64,000 nt of DNA from positions 13,330-77,329 of the forward strand of contig JACPCU010000009.1 of the NCBI GenBank assembly GCA_016184315.1, read 5' to 3'. The stretch comes from Nitrososphaerota archaeon (lineage in GTDB: Archaea; Thermoproteota; Nitrososphaeria; Nitrososphaerales; JACQRY01). Position 1 is the stretch's first letter. Every line of letters begins with the position of its first letter. The notes under the pieces were generated by a model. The model saw only the letters and a list, made by a program, of their open reading frames with translations. It made no database searches and was not told where the DNA came from. Position numbers and translations under genes: made by a program. This document shows, piece by piece, positions 6,946 to 58,882 of this stretch.

Positions 6946-7130
6946 TGGCTACAAGACGTATGCGGAGCTGAAAGCCGAGTAGCCATAGGAAAGACTGGTT
7001 TTGCATGAATAGTGGTTTCTATCTGGAAAACCATGGATTTCTACTGTTTGGTAACTTGGATTGGTTTATTTGTTTGTAATCATAGTGTGGAGTTAATTTT
7101 ATATTAAACTTAGCATACAAAAACGTTGTA

Positions 7131-8360
7131 ATGGTCAACACCGTGACTGCCGCGTCTCTGATTGCTCTTATCGTCGCAGCTGCGTCATTTGGCTACGCTA
7201 GTTTTGCTGTTTCAGGAGAAGCAGGGCAGCTCAGAACCCAGATTAAGCAGATCGATCAGAACTTGGCAACGGTTCAGAAGGATATCGGTGAGTTGAAGAG
7301 CAGCCTCCAGAGGTCCTTGGAGGAGACTAGGAAGATAGCTGCTGAAAGAGAGGCGCTCATACAGCAGATAACGCCCTTCGATCCTGCTCTTGTGGCGGCT
7401 GCGATCAAGGAAGGTGGTCTTACTATCTACTCGGTCAGAGATCAGGAGGACATAGTGGTGCTGTCACAGGAATTTCAGAAGAAGTTTCCGGGCATAAAGG
7501 TGAGTTTCTTTAATGCTAGGGAGCTTGAGCTTCTGGCTAGGATCACTGCGGAAGCGAAGCAGTCTCAGTCCACTTGGGATATCTATGATGCTGGCGCTAG
7601 GGTTTTGGGTGCTGCTGCGAACATAGGTGCTACTCAACGTTACGTGTCTAAGCAGTATACTCCGGAGAACTTTCCTATTGTTGATCCTGATAGGTTCTTT
7701 TATGGTGCGACGATCCCGGTGATGATCTATAATCCTAAGCTGGTGAAGAAGAGTGACTTGGATGCGGTTAAGACGTGGGAGGATGTTCCTAAGCTGGCTG
7801 CTAAGTATCAGGGTAAGGTCCTTATGGATCATCCGACGCGTCTAGGTTCGCATACTCAGATTCTGGGTGAATTGAAGAGTTATTGGAAGGATGATTCGAG
7901 GTGGAGCAAGTATCTGGGCGAGCTGAAGGCTCTTGGCGCAAGGATGTTCAAGAGTACTGGTGAGATTGGGCGGCTCATTATTTCTGAGGAGGGCTCTATT
8001 GGCATAGTGGGCTTGCTGCACGATGTGTTGCAGGCTAGGGTCAGAGGCAGCCCCCTTGAATTCATGCCTGTGTCTCCTCTTGTGGTGCAGCCTTTTGGGG
8101 TTGTCATCTCCAAGAACGCGCCTCACCCCAATTCTGCGAAACTGTTGGTCGAGTTCATGCTGAGCCCTGACGGTCAAGAAGTCTTCTCCAGGGCTTTCCG
8201 TTCACCTATGAGGACTGGGTTTGTCTCCAAATCTTCTGGCAGCGTGCTCTTCCCGAATGTTCCTTCGAACCAGATAATTGGCACCTTGAATCAGGAGCTC
8301 CTCGCAGATCCGCAGGACTTCGCCAAAAGGTATCTTGAGCCTGTTTTCGGGCCTGCTTGA
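7131..8360 (+). CDS. membrane-anchored ABC-transporter solute-binding protein (family 1, iron(III)-type fold likely)
   Basis: 409 aa. It has an N-terminal TM helix, then a coiled-coil linker, then a periplasmic-binding-protein-like body (SVRDQEDIVVLSQEFQKKFPGIKV, TWDIYDAG). No permease or ATPase genes are adjacent. Confidence 0.55.
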   Translation: MVNTVTAASLIALIVAAASFGYASFAVSGEAGQLRTQIKQIDQNLATVQKDIGELKSSLQRSLEETRKIAAEREALIQQITPFDPALVAAAIKEGGLTIYSVRDQEDIVVLSQEFQKKFPGIKVSFFNARELELLARITAEAKQSQSTWDIYDAGARVLGAAANIGATQRYVSKQYTPENFPIVDPDRFFYGATIPVMIYNPKLVKKSDLDAVKTWEDVPKLAAKYQGKVLMDHPTRLGSHTQILGELKSYWKDDSRWSKYLGELKALGARMFKSTGEIGRLIISEEGSIGIVGLLHDVLQARVRGSPLEFMPVSPLVVQPFGVVISKNAPHPNSAKLLVEFMLSPDGQEVFSRAFRSPMRTGFVSKSSGSVLFPNVPSNQIIGTLNQELLADPQDFAKRYLEPVFGPA

Positions 8361-8648
8361 AGGATAGGTTCAGGTTCCTAGGTTGACCATCTAGGCTGTG
8401 AGCTTGTTCTACTGCATAGTCTGAGGGGGATGGATCATGTTCCGGGGATTGAGCCTCTTAACTCTGTTATGTGTAAGCGCTGTTGAATTCCCGGGGTTTG
8501 CCGGTTTTCACACGCTGGCAAAGAACTGGTCTAGGGGGGCTATATAATGCGGGCAAAGCGAAGACGCCCCTATGCTTGAGCAGAAACGTTGTTTTGGAAA
8601 CTAAGCTGTTGACATCAGCTAATAGTATTAGTATATCTCTAGTGCTAG

Positions 8649-15839: not shown

Positions 15840-16289
15840 ATGGGCTTTGCCATAAGTTTCACAAGAAGACTGAAGGCTCCTAGAGCCCTAGTGTATCGGA
15901 CAATCACCGACTTCGAGAATCTTCAAGATAGATTACCGAAGATATTCCACTCAATACAGGTGTTAAAGCGTAATAAGAATTACATCATCACAGAGGAAGA
16001 ATTCTCGGTCTTAGGAAGTGTGATAACTCAGAGGAGCAAGCATGTTGTCAAAGTGCCTACGAAGCACACTGTGGAGATCCTGACTGGTGAACTTGCGGGG
16101 AGCAAAATAGTGGAAAGATACAGTGATGATTCTGACGATGGGACCATAGTTAATGTCGACGCTGATTTCTCTCTCGGAGGACTTCTTTCCTTCCTCCCTT
16201 CGTTTATTATTAGACCGATGATTGAAGACAGTCTCAATCGTGTGTTTACCGAGCTGGAGGACGCGTTTCAATCTGGCGCTATATCCTGA
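15840..16289 (+). CDS. SRPBCC (START/polyketide-cyclase-like) ligand-binding protein
   Basis: 149 aa. Its size and pattern (ITDFENLQDRLPKIF...) fit the SRPBCC fold. It overlaps the 3' end of the convergent FAD oxidoreductase gene by 11 nt. Confidence 0.45.
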   Translation: MGFAISFTRRLKAPRALVYRTITDFENLQDRLPKIFHSIQVLKRNKNYIITEEEFSVLGSVITQRSKHVVKVPTKHTVEILTGELAGSKIVERYSDDSDDGTIVNVDADFSLGGLLSFLPSFIIRPMIEDSLNRVFTELEDAFQSGAIS

Positions 16290-17352
16290 TCATGCGCACC
16301 ATGGTCATTGCTTGCTGAATGAACGAGATCGGTTCGATACCGAGTCTATTGATCTGCATCTTGAATCCATATCGAGATTGGTTTGTCCAAAGATGCGATA
16401 GCACTGCCAGTGATAACTCTGCGTGTTCCAAGAGGCTGACTTCGCCACGTAATATAGGCTCCAGAAATTTGTAAGCCGTTTCATAAAACTCAAAGTGCTT
16501 AATCACACGCCTACGATATTCATCAAGATCATCTATGTGTTTTTCTAAGAGCTCTGCACACTCCAGCGTGGGAATTATTCCCTCGCCTAGAAGAGGAAAT
16601 ACAGCCCCAATGCTCTCACCGACACCTACCACCTTTCCTGATCGGAACGGCTGGCAGTATCTTGGTGGACAAAGTCTCACCGGTCTCCCAACGATCTTCT
16701 CCCGCTTACCTCCATACCGATCAAAGAAGTCTTGAAGCGCCTGATTATGGCCGTGGTTGAGATCGCCAGCACCTACATGACTCCAGCCTTCCCCCAGAGG
16801 AAAGTACCACAAGTAACCACCCATGCCATCCAAGACTTGGATATAGAAATCGTCAAACGGCGGATCACGATATTTCACCCTATACTGGGCACAAGGTATC
16901 CGCAGCTCATATCCCTCGATCTTGGGCAGGAGAACCCTGAGACCAGTCGCGTCGATTATCAGGTCATAATTCTTCAAATCTTCCTCGTTCTTGACCCAAG
17001 AGTTGTACCGAATCTCTTGTCCCCGACGCATATCTTCGAGGAAGCTATGCTTATCAAAACTGACAAGCCCGTCAAGAGGGTTTTCGACCTCTACCCCTCC
17101 CACTGAAACCAGCATGTTCTCGCCTTCATGCAGTATATAGTCTTCAAAATTCAAGTCGCAAGCCTCAGCAAACCTGCTGATGTAGCTCTTGCTCGTCCCC
17201 CATGCGCACACGCACTGAAAAGTTCTTCGTGGATACCTTTCAAAACCTGTGACGTCGTGAACGCGGCTTAGCCGGTTAATTAGATAGGAGCCAGCTACCC
17301 CCATTCCGACGATCGCAATTCTCAAACTTCTAATTGATCGATTCGGAGCCAT
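16279..17352 (-). CDS. FAD-dependent oxidoreductase (geranylgeranyl-reductase-like)
   Basis: 357 aa. It has the N-terminal dinucleotide-binding motif IAIVGMGVAGSYLINRL. Its length and layout resemble small GGR/FixC-like flavoproteins. Confidence 0.55.
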   Translation of the reverse strand: MAPNRSIRSLRIAIVGMGVAGSYLINRLSRVHDVTGFERYPRRTFQCVCAWGTSKSYISRFAEACDLNFEDYILHEGENMLVSVGGVEVENPLDGLVSFDKHSFLEDMRRGQEIRYNSWVKNEEDLKNYDLIIDATGLRVLLPKIEGYELRIPCAQYRVKYRDPPFDDFYIQVLDGMGGYLWYFPLGEGWSHVGAGDLNHGHNQALQDFFDRYGGKREKIVGRPVRLCPPRYCQPFRSGKVVGVGESIGAVFPLLGEGIIPTLECAELLEKHIDDLDEYRRRVIKHFEFYETAYKFLEPILRGEVSLLEHAELSLAVLSHLWTNQSRYGFKMQINRLGIEPISFIQQAMTMVRMIRI

Positions 17353-17899
17353 ATATCCTTTCCTGATGAATGTTCTGCTAAGTTGTCGGCTGATAACACT
17401 TTAGACTCACGTCTCTGCTATTCAGAGAGTTACCTCAACCGGGAGGTGACAACCTTTATTACTTCCTGCATCATACACGCAACGAGTAAGGTTGTCAACC
17501 ACAAAAGCGACAAAAGTAGGAAGAACCCCAACACTAAGAGCGCAGATCCCCATGCTGATAGCACCAGCAAAATACTGTAGCGCATGTGGCGAGAAACTGG
17601 ATGAGTGCACCTGCTACGATCAAACAATCACCATATCCATAGGCATCAGCAGAGAGCTAATAAGAGGAATTACCAATCTGACTGCACTGCTACCGCGAAT
17701 TCAGATATCATCCAACCGTGCCTTAGCTGCGGACAAGTCTCTCACAACGGATCATGCTCAGTAGAAGGATGCAACTGTAAGTGAAGACCGAATAAAGAAA
17801 GAAGAATGCTGATTCGCATGTTCACCCGCCGATGGGACATAACCGCGGAAACATGCAATCACCCAAAACAGTGTTATCAATACCGAACTATGGGTCTTG

Positions 17900-18298
17900 T
17901 TAACGTAGCTTATACGCAAGAAAGTACAATCTGGGCGATGTTCGGGCCAAAGATATGACTCGCTCCCATATTGCATAACATCGCAGAAGCGTTACTGGCT
18001 CTCCAGAGACTTTGAGTTCGTTGGCAAAGAATGCTTCACTAAGAGTAATCTTCCCCTCGAGAATCTTGAATAGGCAGTCCCTAGAGAGGGTTACACGAAC
18101 GTTAATCTGTTTCTTTCGTGCCCTGCTAGTTATTCTGATTCTACGCCCGGTTACCTGAATTACTGCCTTTTCGGTGTCGAGAGTTTGGAGGCAGGTAATT
18201 CCTCGAGCATCTTTGATAAGCTCTTGTAGTTGCTGGTGGTAGTCTTCTTTCATCAACGCTAGAAGATTTTTGAGAAAATGGCTAAGTTTCAACGGCAT
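17900..18298 (-). CDS. SCP2 sterol/lipid-carrier domain protein
   Basis: 132 aa. DCLFKILEGKITLSEAFFANELKVSGEPVTLLR matches the SCP2 C-terminal consensus (Gkl...afm.Gklki.Gd). Confidence 0.7.
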   Translation of the reverse strand: MPLKLSHFLKNLLALMKEDYHQQLQELIKDARGITCLQTLDTEKAVIQVTGRRIRITSRARKKQINVRVTLSRDCLFKILEGKITLSEAFFANELKVSGEPVTLLRCYAIWERVISLARTSPRLYFLAYKLR

Positions 18299-19484
18299 AT
18301 TGGCTCACGCTTCCACGTGGTCTGACAGATTCGAACCAGCATGGAATGGTTCGGTCATAGACATGACCTCCTATATTTCCATTAAGGCTTGCGCTGCAGA
18401 ACATTTCATTGAACACTCTATCCGGTTCACCGTAAATGCTCGCAACCACTATGCTACAGACGGCCTTTGGAGTGAAGACGATCTTGAGTTTGTCAGGTTC
18501 GTCGCTTGCTGAAAGAATCACTCTTTCGGGTATATCTGGATGGTAGTCTGGATAAAGTAGGCGCGTAATTCCGGGGACTACACTCCATCCGTTCGTAAAT
18601 CTTCCCGTTCGCGTGATCTGGATATTCTCGTTGTCAAAATACTTCCGCTCACCGTTTTTCATTCCAATAATGACTCCGCCGTGGGAGAATCTGTCGGATG
18701 GCCCCCATCGGTAGAACCTAAACTCAACGTTCTCCGGTTCTTCTTCAATCAAGGGATCACAAAGAATAACCCCCGTATCCCAGCCCCACGTACTGCCCCA
18801 ATCAAACCGGCCTCCCTCATGATCGTGGTAACCTGTACGTGTATCTATGGTAAAACTAGTCCCATCTAATGTGACTTCTCCAGAGACAGGCAGCCTTGGA
18901 AGTTCTACCCAGTTATCCCAAAGCTTAGCCATTTCTAAAGCAGCGCGGGCCATTCCATAACTAATTGTTCCGTGCATGTTTAGAACATCTAGGAAGATGT
19001 CTTTGCCTGATACAGGGGGTAGAATAACGGGGAGTTTGAAATTGCAGGCTAGATTACCAATCTGCCCTTTTATCTTGAAAGAATTATCTTTCAGGTAGAC
19101 TACCTCAATGCCTTCGCCAATAAAGTCTGGGTTGTATGATGATACTTGCAGCTTGTCAAGAGCTATTAGTTTCATCTCAGCAAAGGTTCTTCCTCGCCGG
19201 TCTGCGAAAAACAAAAGAGCGAATCCGCATCCACGCTTGGAATCATATGGGTTTCCATAAATCCCGAAGTTCAGAAAGCTGAATATACGTTTCCTTCTAT
19301 CAAAGAACACAAAGTCATGCCATTCTTTATACAGCGCCAAGCGTGCGTCAAAAATCGAGGGAATATTAAAAGCATCGACAAGAGTTGTGTCTTCTATACG
19401 GTAGAATCCCAAGGACAGAGCACCGCTAGAGCCTCCGGCTTCGACTGCGCTTTTTTGACACATTTTGCGGTGAAGCATTATCAA
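18282..19484 (-). CDS. CrtC/AttH-like (hydroxyneurosporene-synthase-like lipocalin fold) protein, putative
   Basis: 400 aa, beta-rich. GYHDHEGGRFDWGSTWGWD resembles the G-x-Y-x-DH-x-WG motif of carotenoid 1,2-hydratase/AttH domains. The assignment is from memory only. Confidence 0.4.
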   Translation of the reverse strand: MIMLHRKMCQKSAVEAGGSSGALSLGFYRIEDTTLVDAFNIPSIFDARLALYKEWHDFVFFDRRKRIFSFLNFGIYGNPYDSKRGCGFALLFFADRRGRTFAEMKLIALDKLQVSSYNPDFIGEGIEVVYLKDNSFKIKGQIGNLACNFKLPVILPPVSGKDIFLDVLNMHGTISYGMARAALEMAKLWDNWVELPRLPVSGEVTLDGTSFTIDTRTGYHDHEGGRFDWGSTWGWDTGVILCDPLIEEEPENVEFRFYRWGPSDRFSHGGVIIGMKNGERKYFDNENIQITRTGRFTNGWSVVPGITRLLYPDYHPDIPERVILSASDEPDKLKIVFTPKAVCSIVVASIYGEPDRVFNEMFCSASLNGNIGGHVYDRTIPCWFESVRPRGSVSQYAVET

Positions 19485-19842
19485 GAATTTCTAAGGTTCG
19501 GCTTGACAGTTTTTGCAACAACACCAATAGGTCAGAGCTGAATTGAAGATAGGCACGCGTCAGGTCATCAATTGAGCCTTCGACAAGGCCTTCCAATCCC
19601 TCCCTGTCAAGTTGGGACACGCGTGTCGAGAATTGAGTCAGTTTCTGGAGTGTTTGTAGAGAATTCGTAATTGAGACCTGTGTTAGCTTCGTCAATTGAT
19701 TCTGGTATTCTGGATCATTGAGGTTCTTAACTATATGATTTATTGCTTGGCCAACGAAACGCGGATCGAGCAAGACAAACGCTTGAGGAGGCACTTGCGT
19801 AGATTCACGTTCAGTCTTTGAAGTCTTCCCGTCTTTACCCAA
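19426..19842 (-). CDS. hypothetical helical protein (138 aa), phasin-like by composition
   Basis: It is an all-helical, Q/L/T-rich sequence with a basic tail (KKRSRSRRL). Its 3' end overlaps the next gene by up to 59 nt. Confidence 0.4.
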   Translation of the reverse strand: MGKDGKTSKTERESTQVPPQAFVLLDPRFVGQAINHIVKNLNDPEYQNQLTKLTQVSITNSLQTLQKLTQFSTRVSQLDREGLEGLVEGSIDDLTRAYLQFSSDLLVLLQKLSSRTLEILDNASPQNVSKKRSRSRRL

Positions 19843-19877
19843 ACAGTTCTCAAGCGCAACTCGTCTCGTAGCTGCAC

Positions 19878-20900
19878 TTATCTCTTACGGTTGATGAGGT
19901 AATCGGTTTGATCAAAGAAGAAACGCTTCCAGCGTTTCTCGGTCATCCAAGTACATTCATTCAGAAGTGTTTCTCTAGCCTTCTTGGCGAGCCTTCGAGC
20001 TACTTTCCTAGCGTATTCGAGACTGGAATATTTTTGCATGAGTTCCCTTACGTATTCCACGTCTGCATCAGTCTTAGAGTCTCGTGATGTCCCCAGAATT
20101 CTGCGCATTCTCTTTCGTTCTTCAGGAGTGCATGAGTTTAGAAGATGGATCAGTATGAGGGTTCTCTTACCCTCCAAGATATCTCCATTGATTTCCTTGC
20201 CGTAAAGCTTCTGGGACGCAGTTAAGTTCAATGTGTCGTCGGTTATCTGAAATGCCAATCCAAGGTTCAGCGCAAACCTCGTAAAGGAATCAAGCTGCTC
20301 AGGAGAGGCATGGTCACTTCCAATAATCAGGCCAGTCCGACAAGGTGTGATTACTGTGTACCAGCAAGTCTTGTTTTCACATATCCTAAAGTAATCCCTA
20401 GATGTTAGATCAACCCTATTTTTCCTCACATAGGTAAGCTCCATTATCTGTCCTTCGACACTTCTCCCAGCCATTTCCTGTATCTCCAAGATTATCTGCA
20501 AAGACTTTCTTACTCCTATTACGCTGAGGTTATCTATCAGCGGAGACATGCTAAGGATCTTGACTGCATCACCTGCATTGGCAGCCAATGCCAGACCATA
20601 TTTCCTATTCAAAGTAAGGTCACCCCTGCGATAAAGCGATTGATCTACAATATCGTCCTTGATGAGAAACGCGTTGTGGAGAAATTCGATAGCTGCTCCG
20701 GTATTTACTGCATTATCATAGTCTCCTCCTACTGATGCCGCAGCTGCGAGACAAAAGGCTGGTCGAATTCCTTTCCCTGGTCGGGTCGGGTAATCTGACA
20801 GAAGCTTGTAGGCTAGGCTATGTGGCCTGAAGTTCTTTCTTAGGTAATACTGCATTCGGCGTGCTACCTTCTTCCTTAGCATGAGTAGGTCTTCTGTCAA
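19878..20900 (-). CDS. trans-polyprenyl diphosphate synthase family protein
   Basis: 340 aa. The first Asp-rich motif is FLIKDDIVD and the second is FQITDDTLN, with conserved GKEINGDILEGKRT between and after them. Confidence 0.8.
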   Translation of the reverse strand: MTEDLLMLRKKVARRMQYYLRKNFRPHSLAYKLLSDYPTRPGKGIRPAFCLAAAASVGGDYDNAVNTGAAIEFLHNAFLIKDDIVDQSLYRRGDLTLNRKYGLALAANAGDAVKILSMSPLIDNLSVIGVRKSLQIILEIQEMAGRSVEGQIMELTYVRKNRVDLTSRDYFRICENKTCWYTVITPCRTGLIIGSDHASPEQLDSFTRFALNLGLAFQITDDTLNLTASQKLYGKEINGDILEGKRTLILIHLLNSCTPEERKRMRRILGTSRDSKTDADVEYVRELMQKYSSLEYARKVARRLAKKARETLLNECTWMTEKRWKRFFFDQTDYLINRKR

Positions 20901-21018
20901 TGATTACGAACTCTCTGTGTGCGATATTTTAATAGCTGCCTTTTAGCTGCAAAGACCAATCCTAGAGAATGCGACAGTCTTGATGAGCCGGCTCACCAGC
21001 TTCACGCTGAGGGGGGCA

Positions 21019-21189
21019 TTATTTGATGCTAATTAGTAGAGCGGCTTGTAAATCGTTGCTATCCAAGAGTATCTTCTTAACTGCTACAATCGTGGACCAG
21101 TTACTGATGGCTATTCTGGTCTTCTTGCACAAGAACGCTGTTGGGATAGACGCTCTTAGATCCTCCTCGGATGCGGTCAACAGCAGCAT
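21019..21189 (-). CDS. small hypothetical protein (56 aa), not in the ORF track
   Basis: Hand translation gives MLLLTASEEDLRASIPTAFLCKKTRIAISNWSTIVAVKKILLDSNDLQAALLISIK. It starts 14 nt after the upstream stop on the operon strand. The + strand ORF 21023..21229 is antisense to it. Confidence 0.3.
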   Translation of the reverse strand: MLLLTASEEDLRASIPTAFLCKKTRIAISNWSTIVAVKKILLDSNDLQAALLISIK

Positions 21190-21203
21190 ATTAGTGATAT
21201 GGA

Positions 21204-21470
21204 TTACTTCCTTGTTCTTGATGCTTTGATCTTATCCGCGATGCTTTGTAGCTGTCCCATGGCACCATCAAAGTGCGTCTTCAGCTGTTGAAGCTCTTGG
21301 GGCGCAACCCTCTTGGCCTCTCCTGCTGCAAGAGTGTCATATATGCCGTTGAGTATGTCGCTTAGTTGAATCTTACCGTCTTTTGGAAACGGATGAGCTT
21401 TCAGCTGTCTGAATTTGGGAGGCAGATCCTGAGCCGGTTTTCTTGACGCAATAGATTTCCGATTTGCCAC
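21204..21470 (-). CDS. hypothetical helical protein (88 aa)
   Basis: It starts 3 nt after the stop of the 296-aa ORF. I recognise no motif. Confidence 0.4.
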   Translation of the reverse strand: MANRKSIASRKPAQDLPPKFRQLKAHPFPKDGKIQLSDILNGIYDTLAAGEAKRVAPQELQQLKTHFDGAMGQLQSIADKIKASRTRK

Positions 21471-21473
21471 GTT

Positions 21474-22364
21474 CTATACCTCCACTAGAATCGTCGGGAT
21501 TTGGAAATCGTTTATTCGAAGCCCTTTTAGCTCGACCTTGTTCAGGGTCAGTGACATATCGAAGCCGGATGCCAGCGCAGATTGTACTTGCACATCGCCA
21601 GAGAGTCCATTCATAGTTATGTTTGACGCCTTTATCCTAGAGGTTATATCAACCCGCAGTCTGAAACCCACGTAACCAAGATCTGCCCAGTCGGTTGATT
21701 TCGTGAATGTGCTGCTCACTTCAAAACCGGCTGACACAGCCTTATCTATTTTGACGTCTTGTGCTTGGATATCTTTGAAGGCTATGGGCGGTACTTTGAT
21801 TCCTTCTGTCTGGAATCGGGCCACTTGAGTTCGTTTGACATTGACCGATTGTGGGCCTAGCGGATTGGGAACGGGCAAATCAAGCCCAAGGACCGAAGGG
21901 AGACCTGTAGACATTCTGGTGTCTTCCATATTTACTTCGGCTGTTTGAACGGATGAAGCCGTCATACCTTGGTTCTCCCCGCCTATGGAGGGCGTCATTA
22001 CGAAAGGACCGAATGCTGTTTGGGCAATGTCTAGTGAAAGTTTACCTCCGTTGATGGAAACGTCTCCAAGGTTACTCCAACCTGTATCAATCGAGCCGAG
22101 AGGCTCATTTCCACTGTCACTAACGCAGTATGTGTCGATGAGATAGTCCACGCAGACTCCGTACCACCAGTCAATGGACGGTTTCAATACGACTTGTATC
22201 TGTGTATTCTTCATCGTCCCTGAATTGTAATCGAAGATTCCTTTGAAGCCATTCAGGGTTACTTTCGATATTTGGATCTGTCCCACCAGCGCTTCTTGAA
22301 CAGTCATAGTGCCCGATTGAGATGACCTTATCTTGGAAGTGGGAAACTTTATCTCCTGGGACAA
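21474..22364 (-). CDS. hypothetical beta-rich protein (296 aa), first gene of the cluster
   Basis: A long uninterrupted ORF with no signal peptide or TM helix seen and no recognisable motif. Confidence 0.5.
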   Translation of the reverse strand: MSQEIKFPTSKIRSSQSGTMTVQEALVGQIQISKVTLNGFKGIFDYNSGTMKNTQIQVVLKPSIDWWYGVCVDYLIDTYCVSDSGNEPLGSIDTGWSNLGDVSINGGKLSLDIAQTAFGPFVMTPSIGGENQGMTASSVQTAEVNMEDTRMSTGLPSVLGLDLPVPNPLGPQSVNVKRTQVARFQTEGIKVPPIAFKDIQAQDVKIDKAVSAGFEVSSTFTKSTDWADLGYVGFRLRVDITSRIKASNITMNGLSGDVQVQSALASGFDMSLTLNKVELKGLRINDFQIPTILVEV

Positions 22365-25409: not shown

Positions 25410-25587
25410 TGGGGCCGGTGGGATTTGAACCCACGATCGCCAGCGCACTGGGCGCACCGAGCGCACCCCAGGTTCACCGCGCAGATGCTCTGGTATCCTA
25501 TTGGCGGACTCACCTAGACCAAGTTATCCGTATGTTTCTGTCCGACCTAGATAGGTAGACAGTGGCATTACTCTAGACGACGGCCCC
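25410..25587 (-). tRNA. intron-containing tRNA, isotype unresolved (Pro-like acceptor; 178 nt)
   Basis: Minus-strand read: acceptor GGGGCCG/CGGCCCC, discriminator A, T-arm GTGGG-TTCAAAT-CCCAC. The D-arm GTCTAG...CTTGGTCTAGGT is split by a 49-nt insert. About 54 further extra nt lie between the D-arm and T-arm. A CUGGGGU heptamer is present, but I could not pair a clean anticodon stem. Confidence 0.6.
25573..25587. repeat. att core, tRNA-proximal copy (ctagacgacggcccc)
   Basis: Exact 15-mer shared with 34004-34018. It corresponds to tRNA positions 1-15. Confidence 0.65.
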
Positions 25588-28970: not shown

Positions 28971-30014
28971 ATCTTATCCCTAAATCATTTCCTCCCCTAC
29001 TCAAGAGACTTCACAAGCTGATCAGATACGTTAGACTGAGCGAGTTTTGGATCAGCCTATGGAGGAGGCATGGACATGCTGTGCTGGATGAGAAGCAGGT
29101 CGAGTGGATCATCAAAGCCAAGATCCAGGGGAAGAGGAACATGGACATCGCCGACGCTATGGGGATATCCTCCAGAAGGGTCAGACAGCTCTACTCCCAA
29201 TACAGGAAGACGGGAGCAATACCAGTCCTCAGGAAGCCTGGTAGGCATAGGGCTCCTGAGGTCACTGTGTATGAGAGGGAGGTCATCAAGGAGGCTTATG
29301 GGAGGTTCAGGATGTGCGCCTGCTACCTTGAGAAGATACTCTCAGCTCATGGGGTACGTATCAACCATAAGAGGATTCACAGGGTGTTGAGGGAGGAGGG
29401 ATATGCATTGAATGAGCCTAGGAAGCAGCGTAGGAGGAAGTGGATACGCTACGAGAGGGAGCACTCCAATTCACTCTGGCATACCGATTGGCACCGGATC
29501 AAGGATCCCAGATGGAGGGGCCAGTGGCTCATAGCCTACGAGGATGACGCATCCAGGTTCATCACGGGCTTTGGGGTATATCCAACCTTGACATCAAGAT
29601 CCTCGGTGGAGGTGTTCGACAGGGCTGTGAGGAGGTATGGTAAGCCGAGATCCATACTCTCAGACCATGGGACAACATTCTACGCGGTGGAGGCAGAGTC
29701 TAGGGAGAAGGGGTTGACGGAGTTCGAAAAGTATCTGTTGAAGAACAAGATCAGGTTCATCATGGGTAGAGTGGATCATCCTCAAACCAACGGTAAGATA
29801 GAGAAGTTCTTCGACATCTTCGAGAAGAAGGTCAGATACTTCCAGTCAGTAGAGGAGTTCATGGAGTGGTACAACTGCGAGAGACCCCATGGAGCATTCG
29901 ACCTGTCAAAGCTGGAGACACCAGTACAGATCTTCTACAAGAGGATGGAGGACCGAGAGCAGCTAACCGACCCGGACACAATACCTAGGGAGGAAATGAT
30001 TCTGTGATAAAACA
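28971..30014 (+). mobile_element. IS481-like insertion sequence (1044 bp) with imperfect ~22-bp terminal inverted repeats
   Basis: IRL atcttatccctaaatcatttcc matches the reverse complement of 29992-30014 (tgttttatcacagaatcatttcc) at 17 of 22 positions. It has a single DDE ORF whose stop lies inside IRR, and it is flanked by 17-bp direct repeats. Confidence 0.7.
29081..30007 (+). CDS. DDE (rve/integrase-core) transposase with N-terminal HTH
   Basis: 308 aa. The HTH is MDIADAMGISSRRVRQLY. The catalytic D is in WHTDW, the second D in ILSDHG, and the E in HPQTNGKIEKF. The C-terminal YNCERPHGA is typical of IS481/IS3-type rve domains. Confidence 0.85.
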   Translation: MLDEKQVEWIIKAKIQGKRNMDIADAMGISSRRVRQLYSQYRKTGAIPVLRKPGRHRAPEVTVYEREVIKEAYGRFRMCACYLEKILSAHGVRINHKRIHRVLREEGYALNEPRKQRRRKWIRYEREHSNSLWHTDWHRIKDPRWRGQWLIAYEDDASRFITGFGVYPTLTSRSSVEVFDRAVRRYGKPRSILSDHGTTFYAVEAESREKGLTEFEKYLLKNKIRFIMGRVDHPQTNGKIEKFFDIFEKKVRYFQSVEEFMEWYNCERPHGAFDLSKLETPVQIFYKRMEDREQLTDPDTIPREEMIL

Positions 30015-32563: not shown

Positions 32564-33952
32564 CTAAGAGCGTATGATCTCCACTACTGCCTTATCCGAG
32601 TTCAACGCGCTTACGAAGCGAGCCTTCCCGCCGTTCACGAGGCGCTTCGCCTCCTTCACGGAGACTATCTTTTGCCTACTTACAGGGACTGTATGATGAT
32701 TAGCCCCCTTGCCTACCCGCAAATTTGTTGCTTCGACTTCCCGCTCCACTTGCTCTGAGACACGGTGCGCGATCCCGTATCGGAACACTACTTCACGCCG
32801 ATACTTCCCAAGCCTACGCCAATACTCCCCTAACTCTTCTACCGTCATCTTATCCAGCTCTTCGTTATCCTTCTGAAACTCTTCAAATAGAGGTGTGTTA
32901 GCTTCGGTATATTCGGCGAGCTCCGCACTGAGGATTTGACAGTTCATTTGCAGCGCCCTTCGATAAATCAACGCTTCAACATCCTGCCGTGATATCTCCG
33001 GAGGGGAAGTTAGGATCGTTAACCGCTTCTCCGCCTTAAGATACTCTTGCTTCAACTGATCATCCGTTAATCTAAGATACGCAGCGTCTAAACCGAACTT
33101 ATGCCCCATGAATAGCTCCACAATGCCCCGATCGACCCCGGCGGATAGCATCTGTGAGAAAAAGTATTTCCTGAAACTGTGAGGGTGGATCTGCTGTCTT
33201 TTACTGTCGGCATCCATTTTTCCCAACAGCCCGGCTTTCTCCACAGCCCTCATAACCTGCCGATAAGACGCATCAGTGGTCAACCTTACCTTAGGGTTGC
33301 CTTCATTAAAAAATACGTACTGATCTAACTGCTTGATGCGGTCGCCGAGCCACTCCTTAAGAAAGCCACTTGTCTCGTCTGTAACATATACAGTTCTACC
33401 CTTCCTTGTCTTCGTAAACCTAGCTTGCAGCCTGATGCTAGTCGGCTTGGAGGTAAAGTCGATGTCGCCCACCCTTAAGCCGGTAGCTTCGCCGAGACGC
33501 ATACCGCTACTCGCTAGGAGGGTAACAAGAGCCTTAGCCCGCAGACCGCATCTTAGAACTATACTCCGTAGCTCCTCCTGTGTAGGCGCTCTATCCATGC
33601 TTACCTCGTAGTTCGCTGGCAACACAATTCGGTTCTTTAGTCGTGCCAGATCCAGCGGAATCCCTTCGCTCAGCAAGAACCCCTTAACTGCCCCATAATA
33701 CGTCCTGATAGTCTTCGGCGACTTACCCTTTCCAACCAAATAGCCGATGTATTTATCCAAAGCTTCGTAAGGATCGAGCTTCCCATCTCGGATAACCTCG
33801 ATCACCACATCCACATCCTTGTAACCAAGGCTTCGGCCCCAAACCCTCAGCGCCCCCTCATATGTCTCAGCCGTCTTTTCGCTACGCCTCGCCTTACGCT
33901 CCCGGTAATCCTCCGCTCCCAAACCCCACTTAAACCTCCTAACTAGCATCAA
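32564..33952 (-). CDS. tyrosine recombinase (phage/plasmid-type integrase), intact
   Basis: 462 aa. It has an N-terminal SAM-like domain. Catalytic residues are SSGMRLGEATGLRVGDI (Arg), HPHSFRKYF (HxxR) and FMGHKFGLDAAYL (His...Tyr). The likely true start is the ATG at 33949. Confidence 0.85.
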   Translation of the reverse strand: MMLVRRFKWGLGAEDYRERKARRSEKTAETYEGALRVWGRSLGYKDVDVVIEVIRDGKLDPYEALDKYIGYLVGKGKSPKTIRTYYGAVKGFLLSEGIPLDLARLKNRIVLPANYEVSMDRAPTQEELRSIVLRCGLRAKALVTLLASSGMRLGEATGLRVGDIDFTSKPTSIRLQARFTKTRKGRTVYVTDETSGFLKEWLGDRIKQLDQYVFFNEGNPKVRLTTDASYRQVMRAVEKAGLLGKMDADSKRQQIHPHSFRKYFFSQMLSAGVDRGIVELFMGHKFGLDAAYLRLTDDQLKQEYLKAEKRLTILTSPPEISRQDVEALIYRRALQMNCQILSAELAEYTEANTPLFEEFQKDNEELDKMTVEELGEYWRRLGKYRREVVFRYGIAHRVSEQVEREVEATNLRVGKGANHHTVPVSRQKIVSVKEAKRLVNGGKARFVSALNSDKAVVEIIRS

Positions 33953-46859: not shown

Positions 46860-47921
46860 GTGGCTCAAGAAAGACGAAGATTCGGATTGAAGACTCATTA
46901 CGACGTAGGCATCGCAGGCTACGGCGTCTACATCCCCACCTACCGCCTGCCGACGACTGAGATCGCTCGGATCTGGAAGGGCGGTGGCGCTGGACCTAAC
47001 AAAGAGAAAGCGGTTGCCTGTATCGACGAGGACTCAGCCACCATGGCTGTTGAAGCAGCTAGAAGAGCCATGGATATGGCACAGGTGTCCAAATTAGGCG
47101 CCATCTTTGTAGGCACCGAGTCCAAACCTTACGCCGTCAAACCTACGAGCACAGTTGTCGCTCAAGCCTTGGGTCAGCATTTCGTTCTCGCAGCAGACAT
47201 GGAGTTTGCATGCAAAGCAGCCACAGAAGCTCTCCAAGTAGTGAGAGGACTTGTCGGATCAGGGATGATCGAGAACGGTTTGGCTATAGGGGTTGACACA
47301 GCCCAAGGAAGGCCTGGAGACGACTTAGAATATACCACCGGCTCAGGCGCAGCAGCTTACGTTCTCTCCCGAAGCAACCCTGACACTCTGGCTACCGTCG
47401 AAGCGGGGGTCTCCTACGTCACCGATACAGGTGACTTTTGGAGGAGACAGACAGAGAAGTATCCAAGACACCTTTCACGCTTCACCGGTGAGCCAGCTTA
47501 CTTCCACCATGTGGAAACCTCAGTCAAACAACTCTTCGAGACCTACGGTTTGAAGGCAAACGACTTCACATACGCAGTCTTCCATCAGCCTAACCCAAGG
47601 TTCCCAGTTGAAGTAGCCTACAGGCTCGGCTTCAAATTCGAGCAGATAAAGACCGGGCTGCTCAACCCGATTATTGGAAACACCTATGCTGCTAGCTCCC
47701 CTATGGGACTTGCCGCAGTCCTCGACGAAGCTAAACCAGGAGAAAGAGTACTTGTAGCATCCTTCGGCTCCGGCGCTGGAAGCGACGCCTTCTCCATCAA
47801 GATAACTGCCTCAATTGACGAGAAGCGGAAAAAGGCAGTTAAAGTAAGCGATCTCATCTCGAAGAACATCAAGATTGACTACGCTACCTACGCCAAGTTC
47901 AGAGGCAAGATTAGCAGGTAA
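46860..47921 (+). CDS. hydroxymethylglutaryl-CoA synthase (archaeal type)
   Basis: 353 aa. The thiolase-like fold has active-site context DMEFACKAAT. The gene order with thiolase and DUF35 is the known archaeal mevalonate-entry complex. Confidence 0.8.
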   Translation: MAQERRRFGLKTHYDVGIAGYGVYIPTYRLPTTEIARIWKGGGAGPNKEKAVACIDEDSATMAVEAARRAMDMAQVSKLGAIFVGTESKPYAVKPTSTVVAQALGQHFVLAADMEFACKAATEALQVVRGLVGSGMIENGLAIGVDTAQGRPGDDLEYTTGSGAAAYVLSRSNPDTLATVEAGVSYVTDTGDFWRRQTEKYPRHLSRFTGEPAYFHHVETSVKQLFETYGLKANDFTYAVFHQPNPRFPVEVAYRLGFKFEQIKTGLLNPIIGNTYAASSPMGLAAVLDEAKPGERVLVASFGSGAGSDAFSIKITASIDEKRKKAVKVSDLISKNIKIDYATYAKFRGKISR

Positions 47922-47937
47922 AGGTGACTGAACAGGG

Positions 47938-49092
47938 ATGAGTCGGGTATACGTTGCTTCAGTAGGCTATACTACTGTCGGAGATCATTGGAATAAATCT
48001 ATTCTTGACCTCGCCATAGAAGCAGGCTTCCAAGCCCTCACAGGCGCTCCTAAGGTCAAGCCTGAGCAGCTAGTAGTTGGAAACATGTTCTCAGGGCTCT
48101 CCTCTAGACAGGAGCATCTCGGCGCACTAGTGGTAAACGGTTTGGGGCTGACAGGTCTGCCTGGTTTCAAGGTAGAGGCTGCCTGCGCCTCAGGCGGCAT
48201 GGCTTCCCTCGCAGTGTTCAACATGCTCAAGGCTGGGCAGATTGACTCTGCTCTTGTCGTGGGGGTTGAAAAGATGAGGGATCTTGATCCCGGGGAAGTT
48301 TCGCAAGCCCTCTGCGCCGCGGAGAGCGCTGAATACACTCAATTCTTCGGTGCCAGCTTCGTTTCCCTAAACGCTATGCTGGCAAGGCTCTACATGTATG
48401 AGTTCGACGTTTCAAGAGACGATCTCTCCGCCTTCCCCGTCCTTGCCCACCGCAACGCCGTTAATGCTACTCACGCCCAGTTCAGGAAAGAGGTATCATA
48501 CGAAGATGTAGCAAGATCCATGGTTATCTCAGATCCCTTAAGGCTCCTTGACTGCGCCCCAGTAGGCGACGGCGCAGCGGCGCTTCTTTTGGTCAGCGAA
48601 GATCTTGCGGGGCAGGTGAAGGGTCCTCTTGTGGAGATGGCTGCTGCAGAATCAGCCACTAACCGTTTCAGCCTTTATGAGCGAGATGATATGCTCGACT
48701 TCGCGGCTACAAGGCTAGCTGCCCACAAGGCTTTGAAGTCAGCTGGGCTGAGCATAAATGACGTGGATTATTTGGAAGTGCATGACGCTTTTTCCGTGGT
48801 CGCATCCCTGAGCGTCGAGGCTCTAGGGTTGAGCAAGAAGGGTCAAGGCGCTAGAGACGCCCGCGAGGGGAAGTATGCGCGCGAAAACGGATTGGCAACG
48901 AACTGCTTCGGAGGATTGAAGGGGCGTGGACACCCTGTCGGCGCCACAGGAGTATACCAGCTAGCTGAGACTTACCTGCAATTGGCTCATAAAGCAGGAC
49001 CAAATCAGGTTGACGATGCTTCAGTGGGATTAGCTCAAAATGTTGGGGGCGTTGACACAACTGCTGTGGTTCACGTGCTCAGGAGGAGTTGA
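47938..49092 (+). CDS. acetyl-CoA acetyltransferase (thiolase)
   Basis: 384 aa. The catalytic Cys context is VEAACASGG, and the C-terminal GGLKGRGHPVGATG and NVGG motifs are present. Confidence 0.85.
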   Translation: MSRVYVASVGYTTVGDHWNKSILDLAIEAGFQALTGAPKVKPEQLVVGNMFSGLSSRQEHLGALVVNGLGLTGLPGFKVEAACASGGMASLAVFNMLKAGQIDSALVVGVEKMRDLDPGEVSQALCAAESAEYTQFFGASFVSLNAMLARLYMYEFDVSRDDLSAFPVLAHRNAVNATHAQFRKEVSYEDVARSMVISDPLRLLDCAPVGDGAAALLLVSEDLAGQVKGPLVEMAAAESATNRFSLYERDDMLDFAATRLAAHKALKSAGLSINDVDYLEVHDAFSVVASLSVEALGLSKKGQGARDAREGKYARENGLATNCFGGLKGRGHPVGATGVYQLAETYLQLAHKAGPNQVDDASVGLAQNVGGVDTTAVVHVLRRS

Positions 49093-49481
49093 AATTGAGT
49101 ATATCATATTGGAGGCTTAAGGATCGGTATTACCGTTTAGTGGGTGTAAGATGTGAAGAATGTAAGAACGAGTTTTTTCCCCCGGTCTATGTGTGTAGGC
49201 GCTGTGGGTCACGCAGCTTGACTGATAAGGAGATGCCTAAGACAGGGAAGATTCTGACCTATACTGAGCTGAAGGAGACTTTGGCTGGCTTCGAAGATCA
49301 AGAGCCTATGCTTCTGGGCATCATTCAGTTAGATAATGGGGTCAGGATTCTGGGGCAGATTGTTGACACCGCAGCGGAGAATCTGAGCATCGGGGACAGG
49401 GTTAAGGCAGTATTCAGGAAGATTCAGGAGCACGGTTCCTCAGGACAAATCTTCTACGGATACAAGTTCGTGAGAACCTAG
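49089..49481 (+). CDS. DUF35 OB-fold/zinc-ribbon scaffold protein of the thiolase-HMGCS complex
   Basis: 130 aa. It has the CEECKNEFFPPVYVCRRCGS ribbon followed by an OB fold. The gene overlaps the thiolase stop by 4 nt. Confidence 0.8.
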   Translation: MKLSISYWRLKDRYYRLVGVRCEECKNEFFPPVYVCRRCGSRSLTDKEMPKTGKILTYTELKETLAGFEDQEPMLLGIIQLDNGVRILGQIVDTAAENLSIGDRVKAVFRKIQEHGSSGQIFYGYKFVRT

Positions 49482-58099: not shown

Positions 58100-58882
58100 T
58101 TAGCGACCATATCTCCTAGACCGCTTCTGAAATGTTCGAATAGCTCTCATCAAATCGATCTTCCTAAAATCGGGCCAATCAACATCGAGAAACACGAGCT
58201 CGCTGTACGCGCTCTGCCACGTTAGGAAGCCGCTCATCCGCTCCTCACCTGATGTGCGAATGATCAAATCAGGCTCAGGATTAGGCAGATGCGAGGTGTA
58301 TAGGTGTTGCTCAATGGTCTTCTGGTTAACATCGTCAACATTTAACTCTCCTTTCCTCACGCTCTCCGCTATGATCTTAATTGCGTCTATGATTTCTGCT
58401 CGCCCACCATAAGCTATGGCAATGTTCAAGAAATGCCGATCATAGTTCTTAGTGATTTCTTCAATATGTGTCAAGAGTTGTCTGGTGCTACCAGGGAGAA
58501 GTTCAAGATTTCCAAGGGCCTTAACGCGGACCTTATGCTTCCATAGTCGTTCGTCTTTTGAGAGGCGCGTAAGGCGCTCTTCGATGAGTCTGATGATTTC
58601 TTGCAGCTCGCCGTTGGGCCTCTGAAGATTCTCTGTAGATAGCACATACAATGTCAGGATCTTTATCCCCAGACTCAGACACCAGTCTAGGACTGCTTCC
58701 GCCGTGTCAGCACCAGCCTTATGACCTTCACTTGGGCTGAAAAGTCTTGAGTACGCCCATCGTCTGTTGCCATCTAGAACGATGCCAACGTGCTGTGGTA
58801 GGTGGCCGTTGTTGATTTGATTGCGCAGGAACCTGCTGTATATCTTGTATGCTCCTATCCAGCGGAGAAGTGTTGGCAGCAA
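58100..58882 (-). CDS. uppS: cis-prenyltransferase (tritrans,polycis-undecaprenyl-diphosphate synthase)
   Basis: 260 aa. HVGIVLDGNRRWA, TLYVLSTENLQRP and IRTSGEERMSGFLTWQSAYSE are family motifs. Confidence 0.85.
   Translation of the reverse strand: MLPTLLRWIGAYKIYSRFLRNQINNGHLPQHVGIVLDGNRRWAYSRLFSPSEGHKAGADTAEAVLDWCLSLGIKILTLYVLSTENLQRPNGELQEIIRLIEERLTRLSKDERLWKHKVRVKALGNLELLPGSTRQLLTHIEEITKNYDRHFLNIAIAYGGRAEIIDAIKIIAESVRKGELNVDDVNQKTIEQHLYTSHLPNPEPDLIIRTSGEERMSGFLTWQSAYSELVFLDVDWPDFRKIDLMRAIRTFQKRSRRYGR

Follow-up and report, generated by a model that had tools for sequence, protein, structure and literature searches.

An archaeal gene cassette with a prenyl diphosphate synthase and an AttH-fold protein: a candidate accessory isoprenoid system

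A 64-kb stretch of archaeal DNA, taken from contig JACPCU010000009.1 of a Nitrososphaerota archaeon and called the window below, carries a gene for a trans-prenyl diphosphate synthase (IPPS) among genes for an SCP2 carrier protein, a protein of up to 400 aa and small orphans. The question that this locus raises is which of these genes belong together, and what they would do to an isoprenoid chain. The open reading frames (ORFs) of the window were listed, their products were then scanned with the hidden Markov models (HMMs) of Pfam and NCBIfam, and the locus was compared with its relatives in other archaea. We propose, with a probability of about 0.5, that six of the genes form an accessory isoprenoid cassette, exchanged between archaeal lineages, by which a C15-C20 chain would be made, hydrated or protonated at a tertiary carbon, and held by a carrier. 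The cassette is undescribed in the literature that we searched on cassette-related terms.

Conservation and distribution of the six-gene core

The family of the 400-aa protein, which we call the AttH-fold enzyme for reasons given below, was used to scan 185,579 species genomes, one per GTDB species. It occurs in only 29 of them, and hence so does the cassette; further metagenome contigs carry it too. The hosts are non-ammonia-oxidising Thaumarchaeota/Nitrososphaerales (including Ca. Gagatemarchaeum), Bathyarchaeota and Ca. Methanoperedens, from samples of peat, soil and groundwater. The copy in the window comes from a groundwater metagenome-assembled genome labelled 'Thaumarchaeota archaeon'.

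Synteny was assessed by tblastn of the window proteins against the loci of the 29 species-level genomes and of six further contigs. Wherever the contig extends, six gene families are found together, in 29/29 species-level genomes. Four of them, IPPS, a 138-aa orphan (g138), the AttH-fold gene and SCP2, are contiguous and on one strand in every locus. A homologue of a 296-aa orphan (g296) adjoins this block in every locus with a long enough contig, on either strand and on either side, and is followed on the same strand in nearly all loci by an ORF of 76-122 aa, which in the window is an 88-aa orphan (g88). The core therefore consists of six genes, IPPS, g138, AttH-fold, SCP2, g296 and g88, and because the same six families are adjacent in 29 species-level genomes wherever the contig extends, the arrangement is far beyond chance. 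The original prediction had described an eight-gene unit that should recur in relatives; recurrence across archaeal genomes was indeed found, in 29 species from three lineages, for six genes and not for eight. As a separate observation, cassette genes appear in four loci (L022, L034, L035 and L036) as split tblastn high-scoring segment pairs (HSPs) in adjacent frames, and these apparent frameshifts are probably long-read assembly errors rather than pseudogenes.

How did the same six genes come to lie in such distant hosts? By pairwise identity the cassettes sort into four clades: the window with locus L008, Methanoperedens, Bathyarchaeota, and the other Thaumarchaeota. Measured in this way, the clades do not follow host taxonomy. 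The window clade shares 81% (IPPS), 61% (AttH-fold), 63% (SCP2) and 50% (g138) identity with Methanoperedens, and 76%, 50%, 60% and 47%, respectively, with the other Thaumarchaeota. Over all clades, between-clade identity is 68-81% for IPPS and 36-63% for its partners. The g296 of the window clade (window and L008) is an outlier, with 29-30% identity to the three other clades, which share 44-54% among themselves; this points to fast divergence or to replacement of the module. Taken with the patchy distribution among species, the clade identities argue for lineage exchange: an accessory cassette has probably moved between lineages, and not a part of housekeeping lipid synthesis.

What the core proteins resemble

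The IPPS (340 aa, 19878-20900 on the minus strand) matches PF00348 polyprenyl_synt at 1.2e-57, with 195.5 bits against a cut-off of 27, and its ORF contains both Asp-rich motifs, DDIVD as the first and DDTLN as the second. The GGPP (geranylgeranyl diphosphate) synthase of T. thermophilus shows the same DDxxN form when aligned with it. This enzyme (1WMW; 2.7e-45) and that of P. horikoshii (1WY0) are its best PDB matches; of the NCBIfam models, IdsA and GGPP synthase come nearest, though IPPS falls far below the cut-offs of both. Mutational work on FPP (farnesyl diphosphate) and GGPP synthases has established that an aromatic residue before the first Asp-rich motif (FARM) limits chain length. 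The corresponding residues here are LHNAFLIKDD, with A at position -5 and F at -4, and by analogy with the mutational work the aromatic at -4 suggests that the product is probably short-chain, with C20 most likely and C15 possible. Members of the clade carry the Joint Genome Institute (JGI) label 'geranylgeranyl diphosphate synthase type II'. Among the homologues of IPPS, the best 120 database clusters are all 73-100% identical to it and are all of the cassette type.

The AttH-fold family is well conserved at about 375 aa, and all of its members are annotated as hypothetical. Sequence searches say little about it: at E <= 0.1 the window copy has no Pfam or NCBIfam match, nor does it match a PDB sequence, the family profile finds 0 PDB sequences at E <= 10, and when 32 members were scanned singly, some gave weak co-linear matches to DUF2804 and DUF7065, at E 0.005 or worse. 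The predicted structure says more. AlphaFold2, run on the 32-sequence alignment, gave a model with a mean predicted local distance difference test (pLDDT) of 87 and a predicted template modelling score (pTM) of 0.89, and Foldseek against the PDB matched this model to the putative AttH protein NE1406 (2ICH; E 7.6e-13, TM-score 0.60/0.69), kievitone hydratase (7A0T; 1.2e-10), a 25-phosphosteroid lyase (9FZN; 3e-9) and the fungal Diels-Alderases Fsa2, Phm7 and CghA (about 1e-8). The model and its neighbours thus agree on a two-domain lipocalin-like beta fold, and an AttH/CrtC-like fold, which had at first been guessed from one motif, is borne out.

W164, W167, Y194, D196, H197, E198 and D203 are among the residues that are invariant in the 32 sequences. 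In CrtC the catalytic residues are H239-x-W241 ... Y266-x-D268 (PMC4717167). The invariant Y194-x-D196-H-E of the AttH-fold protein, with Trp about 27-30 residues upstream, resembles this arrangement in spacing, on which the comparison was made. The modelled fold makes the protein a candidate for a hydratase or lyase with an isoprenoid substrate. Since the sequence tests for CrtC and AttH failed and the fold test alone passed, it is named AttH-fold enzyme, and neither CrtC nor Hgs, the archaeal hydratase to which we return below.

Two further members of the four-gene block accompany these enzymes. The SCP2 protein (132 aa, 17900-18298, minus strand) scores 28.2 bits against PF02036, above the cut-off of 21.3, has weak PDB matches to SCP2 proteins, and is present in all loci of sufficient length. 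In most loci, by HSP coordinates, the AttH-fold gene runs about 14-17 nt past the SCP2 start, and the two appear to be translationally coupled. The g138 gene (19426-19842, minus strand) directly follows IPPS in all loci. Its product has an isoelectric point (pI) of 9.6, a strongly conserved core (NPEYQxQLTKLTQ...) and a helical hydrophobic moment of z = 3.1 against shuffled sequences, the periodicity of an amphipathic helix. Pfam gives two sub-threshold matches, of which the best is PSD1 with 20 bits against a cut-off of 28.5. The description of this protein as phasin-like did not hold, as no phasin family was matched at E <= 0.1 by g138 or by a Bathyarchaeota homologue, and it is the periodicity only that suggests a helical nature for g138, as also for g88. 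Homology between g138 and g88 was considered and rejected (hhalign probability 1.4%).

The remaining two genes, g296 (296 aa, 21474-22364) and g88 (88 aa, 21204-21470), both on the minus strand, encode an acidic protein (pI 4.9) and a basic one (pI 10.3). The g296 family is tiny, with 49 relatives among 1.84 billion protein representatives in an exhaustive HMM search, and g296 has no match in Pfam, NCBIfam, PDB, PADLOC or PHROG. Its AlphaFold2 model is all beta, with long beta hairpins (pLDDT 79, pTM 0.53), and has no structural neighbour in the PDB or BFVD with a TM-score above 0.16; the secretin-like and miscellaneous low-TM matches in these two databases were not taken as homology. Neither the HK97-like fold of encapsulins nor another known shell fold was matched in PDB, BFVD or Pfam. 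The protein is internally duplicated, its N-terminal and C-terminal halves aligning with an hhalign probability of 92%. For g88 there are 25 non-redundant sequences, that of the window included, in one phmmer-linked family with no Pfam or NCBIfam match.

Distant relatives of g296 also lie outside the isoprenoid cassette, and in 4/4 of those with extending contigs (P0144, P0146, P0153 and P0157) a gene of 50-95 aa follows. So g296 and its small partner are an independent two-gene module that was recruited into the cassette. The small partners of the distant relatives gave no significant score against the g88 HMM, and have position and size alone in common with it. Pairs of this type were noted at 1654-3598 of L037, 5732-7033 of L039 and 2546-3696 of L042, where g296-family genes lie without isoprenoid genes and each is followed by a gene of 50-86 aa; L037 has two tandem g296-family paralogues, and in L039 the pair adjoins genes for TIR and CHAT proteins.

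Locus layout, accessory genes and surroundings

The ORF listing recovered all ORFs, coordinates, gaps and overlaps that had been described for this locus, and the motifs FLIKDDIVD, FQITDDTLN and GYHDHEGGRFDWG are all found in ORFs of the window. In the direction of transcription, g296 is followed after 3 nt by g88, which is followed after 14 nt by a 56-aa ORF (21019-21189, minus strand) and, after a further 118 nt, by IPPS; g138 begins 35 nt past IPPS. As a longest ORF the AttH-fold gene has 400 aa (18282-19484, minus strand) and would overlap g138 by up to 59 nt. This overlap is an artefact of taking the longest ORF: the relatives, of about 375 aa, align from a TTG at 19412, which lies 13 nt past the g138 stop, so that no overlap is needed and the corrected gene (18282-19412) encodes about 376 aa. 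At its other end it overlaps the SCP2 gene by 17 nt.

The original prediction had described all eight genes as an operon-like cluster. Gaps and gene order instead suggest two or three units, the likely ones being g296-g88, IPPS-g138-AttH-fold-SCP2, and the reductase described below. Of the relatives, only the near-identical contig L007 has a match to the 56-aa ORF, which lies within the 303-nt spacer between g88 and IPPS and matches no family model. It is probably not a gene. An Rfam scan gave no RNA elements in the cassette region. No product has a hydrophobic stretch of 19 residues above 1.6 on the Kyte-Doolittle scale, and all are predicted to be soluble, without a transmembrane segment.

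The 547 nt between SCP2 and the reductase had been counted as a gap, but are not empty. They contain a 90-aa Cys-rich ORF on the plus strand (17492-17764), convergent with SCP2, which is found at the same position and in the same orientation in ten Thaumarchaeota loci. Its homologues share CxxC and CC motifs and the core TTVC(L/I)TFDTSxLQxLVNMxPK(I/V)Q(I/V)TNN, and it matches no Pfam family above threshold. It is a Thaumarchaeota-specific accessory.

The reductase itself (357 aa, 16279-17352, minus strand) had been described as an oxidoreductase of the size of geranylgeranyl reductase (GGR) and as a member of the cluster. The first part stands, in that it is a divergent member of the GGR superfamily; the second does not, as it occurs in only some Thaumarchaeota loci and is not part of the core. 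It matches TIGR02032 at 4e-12 (46.4 bits, below the cut-off of 158.8) and PF22578 GGR_cat with 24.2 bits (below the cut-off of 27), and its sole PDB match is digeranylgeranylglycerophospholipid reductase 3OZ2, at 8e-7. The GxGxxG motif of FAD binding is present (VGMGVAG), as is the (Y/F)xWxFP motif of the catalytic domain in the segment GGYLWYFPLGEG, which aligns to GYIWVFPKGEG of 3OZ2. Orthologues of 64-69% identity are found in five other distinct Thaumarchaeota loci (L005 and L006 being counted once). Bathyarchaeota loci (L013, L016, L018, L022-L028, L030 and L034, at about 6950-8470) carry another branch of the GGR family directly upstream of IPPS, a protein of about 490 aa with FAD_binding_3 and GGR_cat domains (GGR_cat 40.2 bits against 27), and no reductase was found within 10 kb in the Methanoperedens loci. 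GGR-family genes of two types have thus been recruited independently. At the end of the cluster a 149-aa ligand-binding protein of the SRPBCC type (15840-16289, plus strand) converges on the reductase, as had been noted; it scores at the threshold of PF03364 Polyketide_cyc (23.1 bits against 23.4), recurs elsewhere only in L021 (52% identity), where it again converges on the reductase, and its link to the cassette is weak.

Genes flanking the cassette differ among lineages, and in the window they are TerC and HflX. A search of 72,556 plasmids by tblastn gave no match to the AttH-fold protein or g296. A defence or phage origin was also considered and rejected: neither PADLOC nor PHROG gave a match to any product, save noise on the flavoprotein. 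Further out, at 25410-25587 on the minus strand, Rfam reports a tRNA (30.3 bits) spanning 178 nt, a span that implies an intron-bearing archaeal tRNA; ARAGORN reports no tRNA in the whole window. Beyond it, 7-10 kb from the cassette, lie genes for an rve-type integrase/transposase (29081-30007, plus strand) and a tyrosine recombinase of the Phage_integrase family (32564-33952, minus strand), which may mark an integrated element, though not one that obviously includes the cassette. Genes of the mevalonate pathway and UppS had been placed elsewhere in the window, and they are there: HMG-CoA synthase with thiolase at 46860-49092 and UppS at 58100-58882. At 46860-49481 on the plus strand the former two are grouped with a 130-aa ORF, as in the archaeal mevalonate entry complex, and this ORF is probably the DUF35-type partner.

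Function, rival explanations and known systems

What might these six proteins do together? In our proposal the dedicated IPPS would supply C15-C20 prenyl diphosphate as a pool of the cassette's own. The AttH-fold enzyme would put a proton on a double bond of an isoprene unit in this chain or in a derivative, most likely with addition of water, so that a tertiary alcohol would result; CrtC, kievitone hydratase and Hgs all hydrate in this way. SCP2 would hold the hydrophobic substrate or product in the cytoplasm, while g138 and the g296/g88 pair would have a non-enzymatic part, as scaffold, coat or chaperone. Where a GGR-family flavoprotein is present, as in Bathyarchaeota and some Thaumarchaeota (that of the window among them), it would in addition saturate double bonds of the chain. 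For archaea, hydration of this kind is documented in Hgs, an AttH-like hydratase by which tertiary alcohols are formed on isoprenoid lipids (bioRxiv 10.1101/2025.10.20.683597).

Several observations weigh against this proposal. IPPS reaches 167 and 170 bits with the GGPP equivalogs NF041003 and NF040698, whose cut-offs are 500 and 468, and the AttH-fold protein fits no CrtC or AttH sequence model. Three of the six core families (g138, g296 and g88) have no assignable function, and the g296/g88-type pair also occurs without any isoprenoid genes. In addition, the AttH/CrtC fold hosts lyases and Diels-Alderases, as the Foldseek neighbours illustrate, so that hydration is only the commonest precedent for it.

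It is this last point that opens the way to an unlikely, though not far-fetched, alternative, in which the AttH-fold protein would take the prenyl diphosphate from IPPS directly as its substrate, as a terpene synthase, lyase or cyclase of a non-canonical kind. Diphosphate elimination or proton-initiated cyclisation would then give a specialised, perhaps secreted or volatile, terpenoid and not a hydrated lipid. The usual layout of a terpene cluster is an IPPS gene beside that of a single tailoring enzyme, which speaks for this reading; genes for canonical terpene synthases, phytoene synthases or prenyltransferases are not recurrent beside it, and its Foldseek neighbours include pericyclases as well as the 25-phosphosteroid lyase, which takes a phosphate off a tertiary isoprenoid carbon. 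However, the fold is without precedent on allylic diphosphates, no Mg-binding DDxxD or NSE motif was seen in the protein (no search being aimed at them), and the recurrent GGR-family reductases and carriers fit a lipid better than a small terpene. Slightly more doubtful still is a tailoring of membrane lipids, after the manner of Hgs or of hydroxyarchaeol, in which unsaturated precursors of archaeol or of glycerol dialkyl glycerol tetraethers (GDGTs) would be hydrated and IPPS would boost the supply of GGPP. Hgs makes hydroxy-GDGTs and has homologues in Bathyarchaeota and in ANME (anaerobic methanotrophic) archaea (bioRxiv 10.1101/2025.10.20.683597), and the host range of the cassette overlaps with this. 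But the loci examined have no linked gene for Ted (a B12-radical SAM enzyme), geranylgeranylglyceryl phosphate (GGGP) synthase, digeranylgeranylglyceryl phosphate (DGGGP) synthase or Tes, the predicted solubility of all products sits poorly with it, the AttH-fold protein is without the sequence signature behind the "AttH-like" label of Hgs, and an IPPS that is private and highly conserved speaks for a product pool of its own.

An altogether different role, which we regard as improbable, would be that of a cytoplasmic particle for storage or sequestration of isoprenoids, with g138 as a phasin-like coat, g296/g88 as a beta-rich shell and SCP2 as the loader. Three of the six conserved proteins being non-enzymatic would fit this, as would the amphipathic periodicity of g138, the acidic g296 set beside the basic g88, and the long-hairpin model of g296, whose sole and weak structural echoes are oligomeric secretin barrels. 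On the other hand, no phasin, encapsulin or known shell protein was matched by sequence or by fold, a short-chain IPPS would be an odd source for a storage polymer, and the g296/g88 pair is also found without lipid genes. To the more specific picture of a new kind of soluble, protein-bounded isoprenoid body in archaea, in which a modified isoprenoid made by IPPS and the AttH-fold enzyme would be loaded by SCP2 into a g296/g88 assembly coated by g138, we assign the same small chance; such a body would have no relative among phasin granules, encapsulins and lipid droplets. A chaperone for a quinone or another polyprenylated cofactor is less probable again. In E. coli, UbiJ (an SCP2 protein) and UbiK (a small coiled-coil protein) hold polyprenyl intermediates in a soluble metabolon, and the Polyketide_cyc family, which the SRPBCC neighbour approaches, includes the quinone-binding Coq10. 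By that precedent IPPS would make the side chain and the GGR-type enzyme would saturate it, and MenJ-type reductases do lie in the GGR family (a weak NCBIfam match). In none of the loci, however, is a UbiA/MenA prenyltransferase or an enzyme that modifies the ring linked to the cassette, the FARM context indicates a short chain, and the SRPBCC protein is present in just 2 loci. Finally, it is hardly credible that IPPS is the housekeeping GGPP synthase with unrelated neighbours, despite the JGI annotation of its clade members and the finding of no second IPPS or paralogue within the window. The same six neighbour families in three lineages essentially exclude chance neighbours, and with the cassette in so few species, the GGPP synthase of most relatives must be a different one. 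Between phyla, housekeeping IPPS genes that are inherited vertically would be expected to share far less than 68-81% identity, and the between-clade values lie far above that expectation. In line with the original prediction, IPPS thus stands apart from a housekeeping enzyme, as a tight clade with the same synteny in every locus examined.

If the cassette does make and hydrate an isoprenoid chain, as we propose, there would be several consequences. Archaeal isoprenoid lipids are environmental and geological biomarkers, and cultured representatives are few or lacking in the host groups (Bathyarchaeota, Ca. Methanoperedens and non-nitrifying soil Thaumarchaeota). The six-gene unit is a concrete target for heterologous expression, from which a new isoprenoid, hydroxylated or partly saturated, may emerge. 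The AttH/CrtC fold family would acquire a member invisible to sequence searches, at least three unannotated families (g138, g296 and g88) would gain a lipid context, and archaea would have a second route to AttH-type chemistry, independent of Ted/Hgs. The role of the three unannotated families could even make the cassette more unusual than a cluster for isoprenoid synthesis and modification with an AttH-type enzyme.

How does the proposed cassette compare with known systems? Its IPPS is like IdsA and the GGPP synthases 1WMW and 1WY0 in its polyprenyl_synt domain, its DDxxD and DDxxN motifs and its similar length, but forms its own tight clade with cassette synteny, and differs from short-chain GGPP synthases in that the aromatic residue ahead of the first Asp-rich motif stands at -4 instead of -5. 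UbiJ/UbiK also combine an SCP2 protein, encoded with small helical proteins, and enzymes of polyprenyl chains, all soluble; there is no sequence relation beyond the SCP2 domain and the cassette has no quinone ring enzymes or prenyltransferase, so that the likeness is one of analogy only. The 25-phosphosteroid lyase of Sterolibacterium (9FZN) and Fsa2, Phm7 and CghA share the fold of the AttH-fold protein (E 3e-9 to 6e-8) and illustrate that eliminations and pericyclic reactions of isoprenoid or polyene tails are within its reach, but they belong to unrelated pathways, steroid degradation and fungal polyketides, and the cassette has no kinase or polyketide synthase partner.

CrtC (PF07143), AttH NE1406 and kievitone hydratase share its two-domain beta fold with the AttH-fold protein (Foldseek E 1e-10 to 8e-13, TM-score 0.53-0.69), in which the invariant Y-x-D, with aromatics about 27-30 residues upstream, is reminiscent in spacing of the catalytic residues in CrtC. 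None of these enzymes needs a cofactor to protonate an isoprene double bond, and by analogy the same would be expected of the AttH-fold protein. The differences are a structure-based identity of 9-13%, archaeal hosts and the lack of a carotenoid pathway: as the original prediction had held, this is not a carotenoid locus, since phytoene synthase and desaturase genes are not recurrent in this region of the window or beside the cassette in related loci. Hgs (Garcia et al., bioRxiv 10.1101/2025.10.20.683597) is likewise archaeal and of the AttH/CrtC fold class, and it works on isoprenoid chains, in partly overlapping hosts (Bathyarchaeota and ANME-type archaea), and the water addition at a tertiary carbon that we expect here would be common to both. 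The hgs gene, however, overlaps ted, the gene for a B12-radical-SAM desaturase, and its product acts on finished membrane tetraethers, whereas the cassette has no ted and its AttH-fold gene is locked to a private IPPS, SCP2 and three orphans. The AttH-fold protein moreover lacks an AttH/CrtC sequence signature, which sets it apart from Hgs by description and not by direct sequence comparison. The closest functional precedent for the cassette is thus the Ted/Hgs pair, and the closest structural relatives of its AttH-fold enzyme are AttH, CrtC and kievitone hydratase.

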